Source: a virus (Duplodnaviria > Heunggongvirae > Uroviricota > Caudoviricetes). Taken from it: 33,277 nucleotides of DNA. The notes under the pieces were generated by a model. That model made no database searches, was not told the origin of the DNA, and was given only the letters and a program-made list of their open reading frames with translations. Shown one piece after another: positions 1-8,820 of the stretch. Location of the stretch: the IMG/VR virus record IMGVR_UViG_2778261295_000004; one strand, 5' to 3'. The translations under genes and the position numbers were made by a program. Within the stretch, counting starts at the first letter, position 1; each line of letters begins with the position of its first letter.

Positions 1-258
1 ATGCAAACCGTTATTTTTGGTCGTTCGGGTTGCCCTTACTGTGTGCGTGCAAAAGATCTGGCTGAGAAATTGAGCAATGAACGCGATGATTTTCAGTATC
101 AGTATGTAGATATTCGTGCGGAAGGGATCACTAAAGAAGATCTACAACAAAAGGCAGGTAAACCCGTAGAAACCGTGCCGCAGATTTTTGTCGATCAGCA
201 ACATATCGGCGGCTATACCGATTTTGCTGCATGGGTGAAAGAAAATCTGGACGCCTGA
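1..258 (+). CDS. grxA: Glutaredoxin 1
   Basis: 85-aa ORF starting at ATG at position 1 with the CPYC redox motif; sequence matches my recollection of E. coli GrxA. Confidence 0.9.
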   Translation: MQTVIFGRSGCPYCVRAKDLAEKLSNERDDFQYQYVDIRAEGITKEDLQQKAGKPVETVPQIFVDQQHIGGYTDFAAWVKENLDA

Positions 259-267
259 TCGTCTGAC

Positions 268-300
268 AAGCCCTCGCGTTGAGGGCTTTACTGATTTTTT
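268..300. terminator. Probable bidirectional intrinsic terminator between convergent grxA and ybjM
   Basis: Inverted repeat agccctc / gagggct with a 5-nt loop followed by a T-run (ctgatttttt); overlaps the ybjM stop codon. Confidence 0.5.
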
Positions 301-665
301 CTGTGCTGTGGTTTAAACAAACTACTGATAAATAAGAAACACAGTGCCCCCAGCGCACACCAGAACACCGCGCTTAGTAACCATGCCAGCTCTTGCCAGA
401 ATGAGCGCGTCGGTGAAAAAAACAGCCGCATAATGAGCATTGAACAGGGTGCCGCCAGCATTGCGCCAAATAGAGGTTTCAGGACTTCTCTACGCTGTGA
501 AAAGAAACTGGCAACTGCTCCAGGAAGAATGAAAAATAGCAAGCCGATTTCAGGATGCCCGGCAGCCCGAAAAGCGCCTTTCATGTGCGTCGCCAGAAAA
601 AGGCACACCACAATGAAGAGGACAAAACAGCAGATTGCCCCCGCCCAACGTTGTTTATGTTTCAC
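288..665 (-). CDS. ybjM: Inner membrane protein YbjM
   Basis: 125-aa strongly hydrophobic ORF, GTG start, in the conserved position between grxA and ybjL. Confidence 0.7.
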   Translation of the reverse strand: MKHKQRWAGAICCFVLFIVVCLFLATHMKGAFRAAGHPEIGLLFFILPGAVASFFSQRREVLKPLFGAMLAAPCSMLIMRLFFSPTRSFWQELAWLLSAVFWCALGALCFLFISSLFKPQHRKNQ

Positions 666-934: not shown

Positions 935-2620
935 GTGAATATAAACGTCGCCGAATTGTTAAATGGGAATTACATTCTGTTATTATTTGTGGTCCTCGCG
1001 CTTGGGCTATGTCTCGGAAAGTTACGACTTGGTTCGATCCAACTGGGTAATTCCATTGGCGTTTTAGTCGTATCGCTGTTATTAGGCCAACAACATTTCA
1101 GCATTAACACCGATGCGCTTAATCTTGGCTTTATGCTGTTTATTTTCTGCGTCGGGGTCGAAGCCGGACCGAACTTTTTTTCCATTTTTTTTCGCGATGG
1201 GAAAAATTACCTAATGTTAGCACTGGTGATGGTTGGCAGTGCGCTGGTGATCGCCTTAGGGTTAGGTAAGCTGTTTGGCTGGGATATTGGCCTGACGGCC
1301 GGTATGTTAGCAGGCTCTATGACGTCGACACCGGTTCTGGTCGGTGCTGGCGATACACTGCGTCATTTCGGCATGGAAAGCAGGCAGCTCTCACTGGCAC
1401 TGGATAATCTGAGCCTCGGGTATGCCTTAACCTATTTAATCGGTCTGGTGAGTTTGATTGTTGGTGCGCGTTACTTGCCGAAATTGCAGCATCAGGACTT
1501 ACAGACCAGCGCCCAGCAAATCGCCCGCGAACGTGGCCTGGACACTGATGCCAACCGTAAGGTTTATTTACCGGTGATCCGCGCCTATCGCGTCGGCCCG
1601 GAGCTGGTGGCCTGGACCGACGGCAAAAATCTGCGTGAACTGGGTATTTATCGACAAACCGGCTGCTACATTGAACGTATTCGACGTAACGGGATTCTGG
1701 CAAATCCAGACGGTGATGCCGTGCTACAAATGGGCGATGAAATAGCGTTGGTAGGCTATCCCGACGCCCATGCCCGACTCGATCCCAGCTTCCGTAACGG
1801 TAAAGAAGTTTTCGATCGTGACCTTCTCGACATGCGTATCGTCACTGAAGAAGTGGTCGTTAAAAACCATAACGCTGTAGGTAAACGTCTCGCACAACTG
1901 AAGTTGACCGATCACGGTTGCTTCCTTAACCGCGTCATTCGTAGCCAGATTGAGATGCCGATAGATGACAACGTCGTGCTTAACAAAGGTGACGTTTTAC
2001 AAGTCAGCGGTGATGCCCGTCGCGTAAAAACCATCGCCGATCGCATCGGCTTTATCTCGATTCACAGCCAGGTCACTGACCTGCTGGCATTTTGCGCCTT
2101 CTTTGTTATTGGGCTGATGATCGGGATGATCACCTTCCAGTTCAGCACATTCAGTTTCGGCATGGGGAACGCTGCCGGGTTGTTATTCGCCGGAATTATG
2201 CTGGGCTTTATGCGTGCTAACCACCCGACCTTCGGTTACATTCCGCAAGGTGCATTAAGCATGGTGAAAGAGTTCGGCTTGATGGTGTTTATGGCAGGCG
2301 TTGGTCTGAGCGCCGGTAGCGGTATTAATAACGGCCTGGGCGCGATTGGCGGTCAGATGTTGATTGCCGGATTAATTGTCAGTCTTGTGCCCGTGGTTAT
2401 CTGTTTCTTGTTCGGTGCTTATGTATTGCGAATGAACCGCGCACTGTTGTTCGGCGCAATGATGGGCGCACGCACCTGCGCGCCGGCAATGGAGATCATC
2501 AGTGATACAGCTCGCAGTAACATCCCTGCGCTGGGCTATGCGGGCACCTACGCAATCGCCAACGTCCTGCTGACGCTGGCAGGGACAATCATCGTCATGG
2601 TATGGCCAGGATTAGGATAA
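935..2620 (+). CDS. ybjL: Putative transporter YbjL (YidE/YbjL-type membrane transporter)
   Basis: 561-aa ORF (GTG start) with hydrophobic N- and C-terminal membrane halves around a soluble central segment; matches my recollection of E. coli YbjL. Confidence 0.85.
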
Positions 2621-2732
2621 AACTGAAGTTGCCCTGAAAATGAAATTTTTTTGCACAACCGCAGAACTTTTCCGCAGGGCATCAGTCTTAATTAGTGCCA
2701 CTGCTTTTCTTTGATGTCCCCATTTTGTGGAG

Positions 2733-2776
2733 CCCATCAACCCCGCCATTTCGGTTCAAGGTTGATGGGTTTTTTG
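2733..2776 (+). terminator. Intrinsic terminator-like hairpin downstream of ybjL
   Basis: cccatcaacc ... ggttgatggg inverted repeat followed by tttttt. Lies in the host/prophage junction interval 2621-2855 where attR is expected. Confidence 0.45.
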
Positions 2777-2855
2777 TTGCCTGAAATTTATACCCTTTAA
2801 AATCATGATGTTAGAAGCACTGCTTTTTAACGATGGCGACAAAATGGCGGCAGCG

Positions 2856-3074
2856 TCAAAGAGAGAGCGCCACCTGTCCTGATTTCATTGGATGCGGCTG
2901 AACCGGATTTGACTCTTTTGGCGTTGCAATCGAACGAACAAAAGTTTCATGGGTAACAAAAGTATGGCTGCAGTTAATGTTCTGGCACTGGTTGTAACGC
3001 TCTTTGGTCAATGAAGATACCTGAAAACTGCTGCGAGTATGGGCGGCACTTCCACACAGTGGGCAAATCATCAT
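2856..3074 (-). CDS. ogr: Late gene transcriptional activator Ogr (zinc finger)
   Basis: Small protein with CPLC ... CQNINC zinc-finger spacing resembling P2 Ogr; immediately downstream of D. Start refined to an internal ATG with an upstream GGAG (table ORF extends to 3107). Confidence 0.85.
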   Translation of the reverse strand: MMICPLCGSAAHTRSSFQVSSLTKERYNQCQNINCSHTFVTHETFVRSIATPKESNPVQPHPMKSGQVALSL

Positions 3075-3164
3075 TTTTCGAGTTCTCCCCATTTTTGCTA
3101 AATTCACAATAATGATACCGTATTATTCCATTTTGCAAACTTAAAAGTTCTCCATTGCGAAGAA

Positions 3165-4265: not shown

Positions 4266-4747
4266 GACAGAAGCCCTCCCACCGTTTTACTGATATCGCT
4301 TAAGGCAGATGTTGCCGTTCCCTGCAGATTACTCAGCTGCGCACTGAGATCACCGAACATATCGGACAGGGACTCATCCACCCGTTTGAGCGACAGGGTG
4401 AACTCAATCCGGCGCGGCATACCGTCGCGGAAAAACTCCGTTTTAGTCTGATTCAGTCCCTCAATCACATACATGCCGTAAATCGTGCCGCTGCCTTCAA
4501 TCAGAGGCCATGCTTTCCCCTGTTCTGCCATCTGCTCAAGTGCCAGCAACGACAGCCTGCCGCCTGTTATCTCCGGCATAAGAACACCGGAAAGCGTCAG
4601 CATGTCGTTGTCCGGTCCCAGAAACTGCGTGGACGGACGACGATTTACCCGGCTGTTAGCCGCATGTCGCCAGCTGCGCTGATACTGCAGTTCCTGATAC
4701 GGCACGGTGCGCAGCATAAACACGTACAATCCCAGCACCATCATCAT
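4262..4747 (-). CDS. U: Tail protein U
   Basis: 161-aa ORF; ATGA start/stop overlap with T; position between T and D. Confidence 0.9.
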   Translation of the reverse strand: MMMVLGLYVFMLRTVPYQELQYQRSWRHAANSRVNRRPSTQFLGPDNDMLTLSGVLMPEITGGRLSLLALEQMAEQGKAWPLIEGSGTIYGMYVIEGLNQTKTEFFRDGMPRRIEFTLSLKRVDESLSDMFGDLSAQLSNLQGTATSALSDISKTVGGLLS

Positions 4748-7700
4748 GCGTCGTATCCCCCCTGATCGCTGTAGTTACTCCTGGCTTTTGCCTTCAGCCT
4801 GCGTTCACGTTCATCAAGCTGGCGGGCCACCTCCCGCGCAATATCCTGCGCACTTTGTCCTGGCTGTGTCTGGATGATGATCTGCGTCGGTGCCTCAATC
4901 CTGTAAACGGGCGGCACAGTGGCTGCACGACTCACAATTGCTTCTCCACCTTTCGCGGGAAGTGCCAAAGGGTGCAACGGTGGAAGCTCTGCTGGCGCGG
5001 CAGCAACGCCCATCATTCCGGCAACAACGGCAGCCAGTGCAGCTGTATTTCTCCGGCTGATCACATTTGCCGGGCCGTTAACAATTTCCGGCCCGTTTTC
5101 ACCGACGATGCCAAACTGCCCGCGCGGGATATACCCGCCGCTGTCATACATCCCCGCAAAGCCATATCCCCATGACGGGAAACCACCCGATGGCATCATC
5201 ACTTTACCGTCTGCATTCACCGTCGCAGGTTGCTGACGCGTCACGCTTTCCGGCAGTTTTGCCTTTGCGGCCTCTTTACTGACAATGCCGAGCTTCTCCA
5301 GCAACCAAGAAACGCCGGATTTCAGGGAGTCCAGCGGATGCATGACCATATTCAGCCCTTCCGCCAGTGCCTCTCCGAATCGCCGCCCCATTGCCGCTGC
5401 ACTCTGCAGTTCGGCAGAGGTCGACTTAACGGGCGTCAGCAGATCAGTAAACCAGCCCCACAGCGCCTGTACTTTGTCGCCAATCCACTGGAACACGGGC
5501 TTAAGCGGTTTGAATGCTGCACTGACGGGACCTGCCGCCGCTTTGAATCCTTCCACCACGCCACCAAGAAATGCGGTGATGGGTTGCCAGTATTTCCAGA
5601 CAACCAGCGCCAAGCCCGCCAGTGCAGTAACCACAAGACCTATCGGACTGAGCAGAGCACCTAACAGACCAGATATGGCATACAGGGCAACGCGCAGCAT
5701 CGCCAGTGGACCAGATGCCAGTACTCGCAGCACCGTGCCTGCGGCGGCCAGTCCACCGCGCAGTACCGCCAGAGGATTCATAAACATCACAGCAACAGCA
5801 CGTAAACCGGATAATCCAGACCGCAAAAGTGCAACCGGCGCACCTGCTACAGTTTTCAGGACATTTCCCGTCAGTGATGCCGTGCGGCGCAAAGACGACA
5901 ACGGCGCAGTAAGTAAACCTGCGGCGTTGCCCGATGAAGCAAGCCCGCGTCGCAGCAGTGCCAGTGGTGCGCCAGCCAGCCAGGACAACGCGCTGCTGGT
6001 TCGAGTTACTGCTGCCGTAACGGAAGGTAACGTTTTGATACCCAGCACAGATAATCCCAGACGGATCACTGCCAGCAGCCCCAGCACTGCAGCCAGCGCC
6101 ACCGCTAAGGTGCCGAGGCCTACGGTAACCGCAGCCACCACAGCGGCTACTTTCATCAGTGTGCCTGTCAGTTCCGGGTTAGCTTCCACCCAGCGGCGCA
6201 ACGCCCCCGTGATGCTTTTCACCGTGTACAGAATATCCATCAGCGGCTGGCGCAGCGTTTCGCCCAGGCTGCTGAAGGTGTTCTGCGCTCCGGTTTTGAC
6301 CAGCAACCACTGAGCAGAAAGTGAGTCTTTGTTGATGTCGGATTCTTTCTGCATGGAACCGAGCGCATCATTGCCCGCAGTCAGTTTTAGCTGGCGCTGC
6401 AGTTCCGGCAGGTTGTTTGCCAGTTTCGCCGCGTCATCGCCAAACTCTTTACCAAACAACATGGTCATGGCAGACAGGCGCTTATCCTGCGGCAGTGCGT
6501 TCACCTTCTCCAGCACACGCTGGATAGTTCCCATCGCATCCTTCGTCATCTGCTTTTCAATCACTTCAGGATTGAGCTTCAGCAGATTCATTCCTTCAAA
6601 GAAACTCTTGCTTTGCATGGTGGCAATGGACAATTCACGCACCATCGCGTTTGCTGCACTGGCTGCAACCTCTGGCGCAGCACCCAGTGTCAGGAAGGTG
6701 GAACCCAGCGCCGCCGCTTTACGATAATCCAGACGGTCAGCCACACCGCCCAGGCGTTGCATGACATCAATGATGTCCGCCCCTTTCGACATGGCGTTAT
6801 CATCCAGATAGTTCAGCGCATCACCGAGCTGTTCAATATTGCGGGTAGGTATTTTGTAGAGCTGGGCGATTTTCCCCAGACTTTCTGACAGTTCATCCGC
6901 TGGCAGCTCAAAGGCTGTTGCCGCCTTTGCCGCCGTGCTGGCGAAGGCCAGCAGGTCACGTTTCTGGTCTTCCCAGCTGTCGTCAGGGTTTGCGACGTTC
7001 ATGCGCGCCCCACCTTCAACCAGTGCGGCGAAGTCCACAGCACCGTTTTCCATCGGCAACTGTTCGCTGGCAGCCTTGATGGCATCCTGCATTTCATAAA
7101 AACGCGCAGTGCGATTGCCATTATCGCCACGCAGACCATTGACCTGCTTTGCCACACCTTTCATGGCATCTTCCATGCTGGTATAGCTTTTTACTGCCGC
7201 CATCACTGGTGCGCCCATTGCCAGCCCTGCAGCCGTGGTGGTGGCTCCGGCACCTGCAATCCGATCCCTTACTTCAAGACGCCTGGCGTAAGCCCCCCGG
7301 GCGGCGTGCATTTTTCGCTGTTGCTCCCCGACACGTCGTAACCTCGCTTCCTGCTCAGAAAGCTGCCTGTTATAACGCATCGTTTCACGGGTAATGCGGG
7401 CCGTCGCACTGGCGCCATCATTAGCTGAAATACCAGCACGATAAAGTTCTGCACGCACAAGCGCCGTCTGCTGCTGCAGCTTTTTCTGGCGTTCTTCCAG
7501 GCGCTGAACAGCCAGCCGTTGACGGCCCAGAGCAACAACCTGACGTTGCGAAGGCGGCCCCATCGCTCCCAGTTCCTGACTGAGCAAATTTGCACGCTGG
7601 CGGGCATAGTTCAGCCTGTCGCCTAATTTCTGATTTTCTGCCTGCAGCTTTCGGAAGCTGTCCAGACTGCTCCCGGCCTGATCAAGCTGCTTTATTGCAT

Positions 7701-7821
7701 CGCGGGATTTTTTGACAGCAGCAGCCAGTTCTCTTGAACTGGCCTGCGCAGATCGAAATGGGCGGGTGAGCTTGTCAACCGCATTAAGAATGACCTGCAG
7801 ACGCAGGTTGTTATCACTCAT
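4744..7821 (-). CDS. T: Tail tape measure protein T
   Basis: 1025-aa ORF with N-terminal coiled-coil-like region and Ala/Gly/Leu-rich hydrophobic repeats, located after E/E'. Confidence 0.9.
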   Translation of the reverse strand: MSDNNLRLQVILNAVDKLTRPFRSAQASSRELAAAVKKSRDAIKQLDQAGSSLDSFRKLQAENQKLGDRLNYARQRANLLSQELGAMGPPSQRQVVALGRQRLAVQRLEERQKKLQQQTALVRAELYRAGISANDGASATARITRETMRYNRQLSEQEARLRRVGEQQRKMHAARGAYARRLEVRDRIAGAGATTTAAGLAMGAPVMAAVKSYTSMEDAMKGVAKQVNGLRGDNGNRTARFYEMQDAIKAASEQLPMENGAVDFAALVEGGARMNVANPDDSWEDQKRDLLAFASTAAKAATAFELPADELSESLGKIAQLYKIPTRNIEQLGDALNYLDDNAMSKGADIIDVMQRLGGVADRLDYRKAAALGSTFLTLGAAPEVAASAANAMVRELSIATMQSKSFFEGMNLLKLNPEVIEKQMTKDAMGTIQRVLEKVNALPQDKRLSAMTMLFGKEFGDDAAKLANNLPELQRQLKLTAGNDALGSMQKESDINKDSLSAQWLLVKTGAQNTFSSLGETLRQPLMDILYTVKSITGALRRWVEANPELTGTLMKVAAVVAAVTVGLGTLAVALAAVLGLLAVIRLGLSVLGIKTLPSVTAAVTRTSSALSWLAGAPLALLRRGLASSGNAAGLLTAPLSSLRRTASLTGNVLKTVAGAPVALLRSGLSGLRAVAVMFMNPLAVLRGGLAAAGTVLRVLASGPLAMLRVALYAISGLLGALLSPIGLVVTALAGLALVVWKYWQPITAFLGGVVEGFKAAAGPVSAAFKPLKPVFQWIGDKVQALWGWFTDLLTPVKSTSAELQSAAAMGRRFGEALAEGLNMVMHPLDSLKSGVSWLLEKLGIVSKEAAKAKLPESVTRQQPATVNADGKVMMPSGGFPSWGYGFAGMYDSGGYIPRGQFGIVGENGPEIVNGPANVISRRNTAALAAVVAGMMGVAAAPAELPPLHPLALPAKGGEAIVSRAATVPPVYRIEAPTQIIIQTQPGQSAQDIAREVARQLDERERRLKAKARSNYSDQGGYDA

Positions 7822-8250
7822 CGTTGGCCCCGCTTCTCTGAATCGCTTTATACCGCCATTCCAGCACTTCGGTCAGCGGCATAACGTCAGTAACGGATGG
7901 CGGCCAGTGAAAAATGGTGGCGATATCTGCCACCAGATCGTCAACCGTCAGGCTGTCGGTAAACCGGCAAGCACCGACTTCTTCAACAAAAAAGTGACAA
8001 CCTCAACCGACATGGCAGTGAGATCTGCCGGGTCCATCTCTGCAATTTCCTGTGCAGTCAGTGCCGGACTGGAGATGCGGGGGATCACGGTCATCATCGC
8101 GTTTACATCCATATCCATAATGGCCTGCAGGCGTGTACCGCGCAGCGCACCGGACTGCGGTTTACGCAGCACAATTTCGGTGATTTCTGTTTTACCGCGC
8201 TTGATGGGGGTATCCAGTTGAATGGTCTTTTCAGTCTGCTTATCGCTCAT
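7814..8250 (-). CDS. Tail assembly chaperone E+E' (predicted programmed -1 frameshift product)
   Basis: Slippery heptamer T-TTT-TTG on the minus strand at 7993..7987 inside gene E. By my hand translation the -1 frame continues about 52 codons past the E stop and ends at a TGA at 7816..7814, overlapping the T start codon. Confidence 0.65.
7948..8250 (-). CDS. E: Tail assembly chaperone E
   Basis: 100-aa ORF between FII and T containing the TTTTTTG slippery site near its 3' end. Confidence 0.85.
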   Translation of the reverse strand: MSDKQTEKTIQLDTPIKRGKTEITEIVLRKPQSGALRGTRLQAIMDMDVNAMMTVIPRISSPALTAQEIAEMDPADLTAMSVEVVTFLLKKSVLAGLPTA

Positions 8251-8304
8251 TTTGCTGTCCTGTCAATTGGGTTCTGGCGCGGTATTCCGCGCCGTTCAGA
8301 TATA

Positions 8305-8820
8305 TCAGAGGCCGAGGGCGTTGCGGTGCGCTTCCATCAGGTCCACACCGTCCACAATTTCCACCATGTTGATAAGGTCCACTTCATAGAGCACCTCACC
8401 ATTGATGGTCAGCTTCGCGTAGCTGTTGGTACTGGTCACTTTGGTGGTGTTGCTTTCGCCCGTCTTCCACTCGCCGGAATCCACTTCTTTGTGACGTCCA
8501 CGCACGACAAGCTCCACGGCCTGCACTTCCCCGGTATCGTCACGCTGAATAGAGCCAGTAAAGCGCAGCTGGATGCCATCCACCGTGGCTTTACCCATCT
8601 GTTTAAACAGCAGCAATTCAGTACCACCAATGGAAAATTCTGTGTCCAGCGCACTGTCATCAAGCCCCAGATCCACATCCACCGCACCCGGCATTCCGCC
8701 GCCGCGATACTTCTCATATTTGCGGGTAAATTTCGGCAGCGTCAGCGACTCAACGATCCCCTGCCAGTTGTTCCCGTCGTTAAACAGGTTCAGGTGTTTT
8801 AATTTGCGTGGTAAAGCCAT
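8305..8820 (-). CDS. FII: Tail tube protein FII
   Basis: 171-aa ORF directly downstream of the sheath gene; P2 order FI-FII-E-T. Confidence 0.9.
   Translation of the reverse strand: MALPRKLKHLNLFNDGNNWQGIVESLTLPKFTRKYEKYRGGGMPGAVDVDLGLDDSALDTEFSIGGTELLLFKQMGKATVDGIQLRFTGSIQRDDTGEVQAVELVVRGRHKEVDSGEWKTGESNTTKVTSTNSYAKLTINGEVLYEVDLINMVEIVDGVDLMEAHRNALGL

Follow-up and report, generated by a model that had tools for sequence, protein, structure and literature searches.

A P2-type −1 frameshift site in the tail assembly chaperone gene of a Wadgaonvirus/Fels-2-type Escherichia coli prophage

Introduction

Among the described systems, the E/E+E' genes of phage P2 (Christie et al. 2002, J Bacteriol 184:6522, taken here from PMC3091744 and the NC_001895 annotation) stand closest to the locus considered here. 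In P2, a shift at TTTTTTG has been found to yield a 91-aa E and a 142-aa E+E' protein (PMC3091744), and the P2 record (NC_001895) annotates a 'site of -1 translational frameshift' at GGT TTT TTG together with a joined E+E' CDS. The P2 fusion is described as a product formed in vivo with a fixed low frequency and as essential for lytic growth (NC_001895; PMC3091744; PMC5009743), and a downstream hairpin is stated to be absent in P2 and in Burkholderia relatives (PMC3091744). The P2 shift has been assigned to the lambda G/GT class of tail-assembly frameshifts (PMC5009743), for which the work of Levin et al. 1993 and Xu et al. 2004, 2013, 2014 is available here in the summary given by PMC5009743, and the efficiency of the P2 type is put at 2–3 times the ~1:30 of lambda (PMC5009743). 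In lambda, G and G-T likewise follow the major tail/tube gene and precede that of the tape measure, and the ~1:30 shift takes place on G_GGA_AAG. In this paradigm (Xu et al. 2004) the chaperones reportedly associate with the tape measure and tube proteins and do not end up in the virion, and the P2 shift is said to occur at ~10%. This latter figure fits the '2- to 3-fold higher than lambda' of PMC5009743.

A second group of described relatives comprises the Salmonella elements Fels-2 (STM2699/STM2697.1), RE-2010 and SEN8, and the Fels-2 record already notes a translational slippage that forms a functional gpE+E'. Here we describe the corresponding locus in a window of 33,277 nt, by which we mean the whole stretch of DNA that was analysed. 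The virus is a contractile-tailed myovirus with the heptamer T_TTT_TTG, unlike lambda, and its prophage belongs to the Wadgaonvirus/Felsduovirus branch of the Peduoviridae, whereas P2 is a Peduovirus. Fels-2, RE-2010 and SEN8 share 85–86% DNA identity with it across the region, with an identical heptamer and an almost identical downstream sequence that carries minor substitutions only.

Organisation of the E/E' locus

The features of the site are collected in Table 1. An initial annotation, based on translation by hand, had placed a T-TTT-TTG heptamer near the 3' end of E and a −1 frame that stays open beyond the E stop, and computational re-translation has reproduced both: the heptamer has the phase X_XXY_YYZ, its first T being the third base of codon 86 (ACT), and the −1 frame, which starts from G 7987 with the codon GTT, runs through 57 codons (VEEVGACRFTDSLTVDDLVADIATIFHWPPSVTDVMPLTEVLEWRYKAIQRSGANDE) with no early stop. 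The predicted E+E' fusion accordingly comprises 88 + 57 = 145 aa. The same annotation had let the extension terminate on a TGA overlapping the ATG of T; a TGA is indeed found next to the T start, though it falls within codons 2–3 of T (cgATGAGTGAtaa) and not on the ATG (7821..7819), which precedes the E' stop by 2 nt, and the E' and T reading frames therefore share 8 nt. Shortly before the heptamer the −1 frame is interrupted by a TGA, so that a productive shift is confined to 55 nt (8002..7948), and the heptamer is the sole in-phase X_XXY_YYZ within this zone. The −1 frame of Fels-2 and RE-2010 happens to extend much further upstream, which gives an overlap of 238 nt as compared with 55 nt in the window.

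Table 1. Positions of the features at and around the E/E' frameshift site (window coordinates).
Feature	Coordinates	Strand	Description
Gene FII, tail tube protein	8820..8305	minus	Directly upstream of E; PF04985 Phage_tube, 201.7 bits
Gene E, 0-frame tail assembly chaperone	8250..7948	minus	ATG-initiated ORF, 100 aa; stop TGA 7950..7948
TGA closing the −1 frame 5' of the heptamer	8005..8003	minus	From frame translations
Shine-Dalgarno-like GAGGT, candidate stimulator	8004..8000	minus	GAGG core 7 nt 5' of the heptamer
Slippery heptamer T_TTT_TTG	7993..7987	minus	ACT TTT TTG = Thr86 Phe87 Leu88 of E
E' extension, −1 frame	7987..7814	minus	57 sense codons, VEEVGACRFTDSLTVDDLVADIA...GANDE; TGA 7816..7814
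GTG used as E' start by RefSeq/PGAP	7933..7931	minus	39-aa 'GpE family phage tail protein'
Gene T, tape measure protein	7821..4744	minus	ORF, 1025 aa; TIGR01760, 312.9 bits; PF10145

Both parts of the predicted fusion have been matched to known families. E is recognised by Pfam PF10109 (Phage_TAC_7) with 67.5 bits at a cut-off of 25, residues 9–88 corresponding to profile positions 1–78 of 79, and Pfam describes this family as 'tail assembly chaperone proteins E, or 41 or 14'; the match to PHROG 103 ('tail protein') reaches 150 bits. E' is recognised by PF06528 (Phage_P2_GpE) with 65.5 bits at a cut-off of 23, over the whole 37-position profile and fusion residues 107–143. NCBIfam holds no model matching E or E+E', a PDB sequence search with E+E' has given no match at E up to 1, and similarity to lambda G/G-T has not been detected at the sequence level, the Pfam hits being to P2-type families only.

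The architecture that had been proposed, namely that of the P2 chaperone genes and of most long-tailed phages, is supported. Two overlapping reading frames, E and E', are situated between the tube gene FII and the tape measure gene T, and family membership, gene order, heptamer with its phase, a −1-frame E' and its end at the T start all agree with P2. The Pfam and NCBIfam hits of the single genes give the order FI-FII-E-E'-T-U-D-ogr, which is that of P2 (FETUD tail operon), within a series of tail fibre H, fibre-assembly G, sheath FI, tube FII, E/E', T, gpU, gpD and Ogr. Even the E' stop falls within T codons 2–3 in both phages (ATGAGTGA in the window, ATGAGTAA in P2), and the fusion shows 48.9% identity to P2 over 96% of the E+E' query (tblastn, E = 7e-30). 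Differences concern lengths and single codons: E has 100 aa in the window and 91 aa in P2, the fusion 145 aa and 142 aa, and the 0-frame part of E beyond the heptamer 12 and 6 codons; the heptamer is preceded by ACT (Thr) in the window and by GGT (Gly) in P2. An antisense reading frame over E (7712..8221, plus strand, 169 aa) has been treated as spurious, because it has no Pfam hit and it is the minus strand that shows codon periodicity.

As regards the host, the first 2.6 kb of the window appear to be host chromosome, and the window therefore seems to hold one end of a prophage. Over the 651 bp of 7700..8350, in which E/E' are flanked by the end of FII and the beginning of T, identity amounts to 100% with E. 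coli RM10740 and to 99.8% with Escherichia phage 500465-1 (Peduoviridae, Wadgaonvirus), and this segment occurs in 999 of 5426 complete E. coli genomes.

Conservation of the slip site among relatives

A tblastn search with the fusion protein has matched 425 phage records, and in nearly all of 60 sampled rows the match is split in two pieces, which is the pattern to be expected when E and E' lie in different frames. For a closer comparison a set of 69 loci has been assembled, consisting of the window, 19 phage loci and 49 prophage loci in bacterial genomes (different bacterial species). In all 69, E' is found in the −1 frame relative to E, and an in-phase heptamer is present at the same place. 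It has the form T6N in 66 (TTTTTTG in 57, TTTTTTA in 7, TTTTTTC and TTTTTTT in 1 each), with the Ralstonia YO077_2 locus, for instance, showing GGT TTT TTG in phase, and the remaining three carry other canonical heptamers, namely G_GGA_AAG (a Mannheimia phage), C_CCT_TTC (a Klebsiella phage) and A_AAT_TTT (an E. coli phage). Site, phase and −1-frame protein have been kept across elements of Enterobacterales, Burkholderia, Ralstonia, Pseudomonas, Acidovorax, Sphingomonas, Vibrio and Zymomonas.

The codon that precedes the heptamer is particularly informative with regard to the level at which the site is maintained. Across the set it is ACT, GGT, CTT, GAT, AGT, TCT, ATT or TAT, so that seven amino acids (T, G, L, D, S, I and Y) are encoded and 8 of 8 codons end in T. 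The residue varies and the T does not, which points to selection on the nucleotide and not on the amino acid, and an invariant T is what selection for the X of X_XXY_YYZ leaves behind.

Predicted mechanism

The anatomy of the site, the homology of its parts and the family-wide conservation of site and −1-frame coding are matters of direct observation, and they make it very probable that the locus carries a P2-type programmed −1 frameshift, from which a 100-aa gpE and a minority 145-aa gpE+E' would be produced. The majority of ribosomes on E would terminate at TGA 7950..7948 and release the 100-aa gpE, and a minority would slip by −1 with peptidyl-tRNA-Phe on UUU (7992..7990) and tRNA-Leu on UUG (7989..7987). 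Both tRNAs would then re-pair with UUU UUU in a tandem slippage, decoding would restart at GUU (7987..7985), and the shifted ribosomes would decode 57 more codons up to the TGA just within T, giving the 145-aa gpE+E'. A tandem slip predicts the junction ...SVEVVTFLVEEVGACR (VVTFLVEEVG, Leu retained; TFLVEE), and either a slip in the P site only, with a vacant A site, or an inserted U predicts ...VVTFFVEEVGACR (VVTFFVEEVG; TFFVEE).

Orthology and conservation suggest that the fusion protein is made from the window prophage. Its frequency of shifting and its chaperone function may be taken to follow those of the described systems: if P2 E/E+E' and lambda G/GT are taken as models, the E part common to both products may bind the tape measure protein and the E' domain may recruit tail tube and sheath assembly, with the frameshift setting a fixed low ratio of long to short product.

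Alternative readings of the locus

RefSeq/PGAP treats E' as an independent gene of 39 aa that starts from GTG 7933, which would render the heptamer incidental. A GTG-initiated frame of this length is indeed present at 7933..7814 and has been annotated in RefSeq and in several phage records, the PF06528 model covers only the GTG-initiated part of E', and the same codon is ATG in P2 and P2-like phages. However, GTG 7933 is not preceded by a Shine-Dalgarno sequence, its anti-SD duplex of −3.0 kcal/mol being close to the background mean of −3.16, as compared with −7.0 kcal/mol for T and −8.3 kcal/mol for FII. The codon itself is replaced by GTA or ATT in 3 of 43 close relatives and by Trp or Ile in Vibrio MAR and Acidovorax Alfacinha3. 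The alignment to PHROG 1756, moreover, spans fusion residues 85–145 and thereby begins at the heptamer and not at the GTG.

Further points against a separate gene come from the sequence 5' of the GTG, where coding periodicity and amino-acid conservation in the −1 frame are already evident. Column entropies from an ungapped alignment of 43 distinct relatives follow the −1-frame phase in the 14 nt from the E stop to the GTG (0.34, 0.03 and 0.99 for positions 1, 2 and 3), the 0-frame phase 5' of the heptamer (0.50, 0.27, 1.11), and are flat in the doubly coding zone. Of the 18 −1-frame residues before the GTG, 10 are the same as in P2 (counted by eye), whereas the 0-frame tails after the heptamer vary in length and sequence. 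According to both the list of reading frames and direct reading, the −1 frame holds no start codon from 8002 to 7934, so that only ribosomes that have come through E can make these 18 residues. GTG 7933..7931 is thus probably not a real start, and an independent E' gene with an incidental heptamer appears highly improbable.

A programmed frameshift in the ribosome would have the same outcome as transcriptional slippage, in which the polymerase adds one U on the T6 run and the edited mRNA is translated into the −1 extension. The site does offer a homopolymeric run of six T, on which an extra U would bring about the same frame change, and the conserved T before TTT TTG would lengthen this run as well, so that it favours neither mechanism. 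Efficient transcriptional slippage in bacteria, however, normally needs runs of about nine. Within the comparison set the run reaches T7 in 1 of 69 loci and is never longer, and the heteropolymeric heptamers of three relatives, with runs of 3 nt only, suit tandem tRNA slippage and not polymerase slippage. Because of these two observations transcriptional slippage is disfavoured; the P2 record and PMC3091744 also describe a translational frameshift, and we regard slippage of the polymerase as very unlikely.

The heptamer by itself is not a rare motif, TTTTTTG occurring 20 times on both strands of the window as compared with ~10 expected. In a rough window-wide control over 38 long reading frames, from which E itself had been left out by the automatic gene picker owing to the longer antisense frame that overlaps it, 34 heptamers in phase were counted in the 38 other frames, and their −1 extensions have a median length of 9 codons. 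An extension of at least 50 codons is seen at four of them, and only two run beyond the 0-frame stop, one of them in a host gene and the other being a G_GGG_GGA in T. This G_GGG_GGA, in phase five codons before the T stop, has been rejected as a second frameshift site, because it constitutes the Shine-Dalgarno sequence of gene U (anti-SD duplex −10.2 kcal/mol). The significance of the E heptamer therefore rests on position, homology and conservation, which together provide strong comparative evidence for the site. A purely coincidental heptamer and open −1 frame without function, for which these control counts would speak, is effectively refuted by the conservation of site, phase and −1-frame protein across many bacterial groups, and its probability is close to nil.

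Possible stimulators of the shift

In E. coli reporter assays, heptamers ending in UUG or UUA, with a heterogeneous codon, shift less than those ending in UUU or UUC (PMC4066793). The UUG-ending heptamer is intrinsically weak, and some stimulation might therefore be expected; how a P2-type site reaches ~10% is not explained by the heptamer alone. Stimulated signals of this kind have been described in E. coli dnaX and IS911/IS3-type elements, which share with the window an in-phase X_XXY_YYZ heptamer and an upstream SD-like sequence. They differ in having A_AAA_AAG and not U_UUU_UUG, and in a 3' hairpin or pseudoknot, typically 5–9 nt beyond the heptamer, for which no support has been obtained in the window, nor a match to an Rfam frameshift element.

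On the 3' side, a candidate hairpin GUCGGU-N12-ACCGAC of 6 bp begins 8 nt downstream of the heptamer (7978..7955). The folds of 74 nt and 161 nt are hardly distinct from those of shuffled sequences (z = −0.87 and −0.80), and RNAalifold on 43 distinct relatives has predicted no structure adjoining the site. Among the pairs of the 6-bp hairpin only a single one varies in both partners, with ~10% of cells broken, and the pair counts of the minimum free energy hairpin are likewise almost without covariation; the conservation of the hairpin region is explained by its coding in two frames. A search of 7600..8400 against Rfam at E up to 10 has returned a chance snoRNA hit only and no known frameshift element. 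Fold z-scores, RNAalifold and covariation thus lend no support to a stimulatory hairpin or pseudoknot 3' of the site.

On the 5' side, the SD-like GAGGT forms an anti-SD duplex of −6.8 kcal/mol in the window. A GAGG(T/G) located 5–7 nt 5' of the heptamer reaches a duplex energy of at most −6 kcal/mol in 57 of 61 distinct relatives, ranging from Enterobacterales to Burkholderia, Acidovorax and Sphingomonas, and the third base of the GAG codon, a synonymous position, varies unusually little (entropy 0.15 vs a third-position mean of 1.11), though the motif also encodes a conserved Glu/Lys-Val and the sequences are phylogenetically related. The documented spacing of SD stimulators of −1 shifts is 9–14 nt (PMC5009743), as it is in the dnaX/IS-type signals; the 5–7 nt observed here are shorter and lie outside what defines an internal SD stimulator. 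The upstream element is accordingly a lead rather than a finding, and it is doubtful, if conceivable, that GAGGU(G) acts as a real stimulator at such an unusually short spacing. If it did, it could account for the ~10% shift of P2 on a weak U_UUU_UUG or U_UUU_UUA without a 3' structure, and the spacing rules for SD-stimulated −1 frameshifting would be extended.

Implications

The comparison supports the site as an orthologue of the P2 E/E+E' frameshift in a Wadgaonvirus/Fels-2-type E. coli prophage, and as such as a recoding event already known in kind. For discovery it is of little consequence, being a textbook recoding site in a common prophage. Its value lies in annotation, where the separate 39-aa E' call omits the frameshift together with the 18 conserved residues between heptamer and GTG, and the correct product would be a 145-aa joined CDS, as in the records of P2, PSP3 and KL3. 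Beyond this, the eight preceding codons, all of them ending in T, offer a clean comparative example of selection at the nucleotide level on a slip site.

Turnover of the slip site and its upstream context

The heptamer that is read as the slip site in E has turned over among distant relatives while the recoding event is retained, as canonical heptamers other than T_TTT_TTG have been found at the equivalent place in L011, L014, L015, L017 and L018 (Table). A Shine-Dalgarno-like element precedes the slip site, and such an element has likewise been observed at the equivalent position in the compared loci L002-L068, where the third base of its GAG codon is nearly invariant and the anti-SD duplex reaches -6 kcal/mol or below in 57 of the 61 distinct relatives. 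As documented stimulators of -1 frameshifting are spaced by 9-14 nt (PMC5009743) and the element here lies nearer, its role as a stimulator is only putative.

Features noted in the window and in the compared records
Feature	Record	Coordinates	Strand	Remarks
Glutaredoxin-like ORF	window	1..258		presumed from reading the translation
Membrane-protein ORF	window	288..665	minus	125 aa; presumed likewise
Transporter-like ORF	window	935..2620		561 aa; presumed likewise
Predicted attachment site	window	~2620..2860
Ogr/Delta zinc-finger gene	window	2856..3107
G_GGG_GGA	window	4762..4756	minus	in phase, 5 codons ahead of T stop
Antisense ORF	window	7712..8221	plus	169 aa, TTG start; exceeds E in length
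E' as free-standing CDS	window	7933..7814	minus	39 aa, GTG start
E' as free-standing CDS	L001	3418..3537		39 aa, GTG start
E' as free-standing CDS	L071	718..837		39 aa, GTG start
T_TTA	window	7962..7959	minus	0-frame codons GGT TTA, doubly coding zone
Shine-Dalgarno-like element	window	8004..8000	minus	GAGGT/GAGGTG/GGAGGTG across window and L002-L068, 5-7 nt 5' of slip site
G_GGA_AAG	L014, Mannheimia phage 587AP1	694..700
C_CCT_TTC	L011, Klebsiella phage ST16-OXA48phi5.4	652..658
A_AAT_TTT	L017, Escherichia phage 503458	655..661
T_TTT_TTC	L015, Vibrio phage MAR	634..640
T_TTT_TTT	L018, Zymomonas plasmid	652..658

Other slippery-type sequences

TTTTTTG occurs 20 times on both strands of the whole window vs 10 ± 3.2 expected from dinucleotide-preserving shuffles, a count matched by none of 100 shuffles, and T-tracts of terminators or intergenic regions may account for many of them. 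Within the doubly coding zone, the T_TTA tetramer could in principle allow a single tRNA to slip back weakly by one nucleotide, which would lead into the E' frame as well; its T_TTN pattern is fairly well kept in close relatives because the -1 frame encodes a Phe that is conserved. Near the end of the tape-measure gene T, the -1 frame from G_GGG_GGA continues directly into U via an ATGA start/stop overlap. This heptamer is most simply read as the Shine-Dalgarno sequence of U, with an anti-SD duplex of -10.2 kcal/mol, rather than as a further recoding site.

Prophage boundary and annotation of the E/E' region

The left end of the window up to 2620 appears to be host chromosome, and the prophage has started by 2856 with the Ogr/Delta gene; the predicted attachment site should therefore lie between the two. 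In RefSeq/PGAP and several GenBank phage records, E' is given as a 'GpE family phage tail protein' of 39 aa counted from the GTG, an annotation that leaves out the frameshift together with 18 conserved residues 5' of this codon, and Pfam PF06528 (37 positions) appears to have been built on the truncated form. The ORF antisense to E/E' is almost certainly spurious, because it has no Pfam match and the codon periodicity of substitutions across the region belongs to the minus strand; it is nonetheless able to mislead gene pickers that favor the longest ORF.
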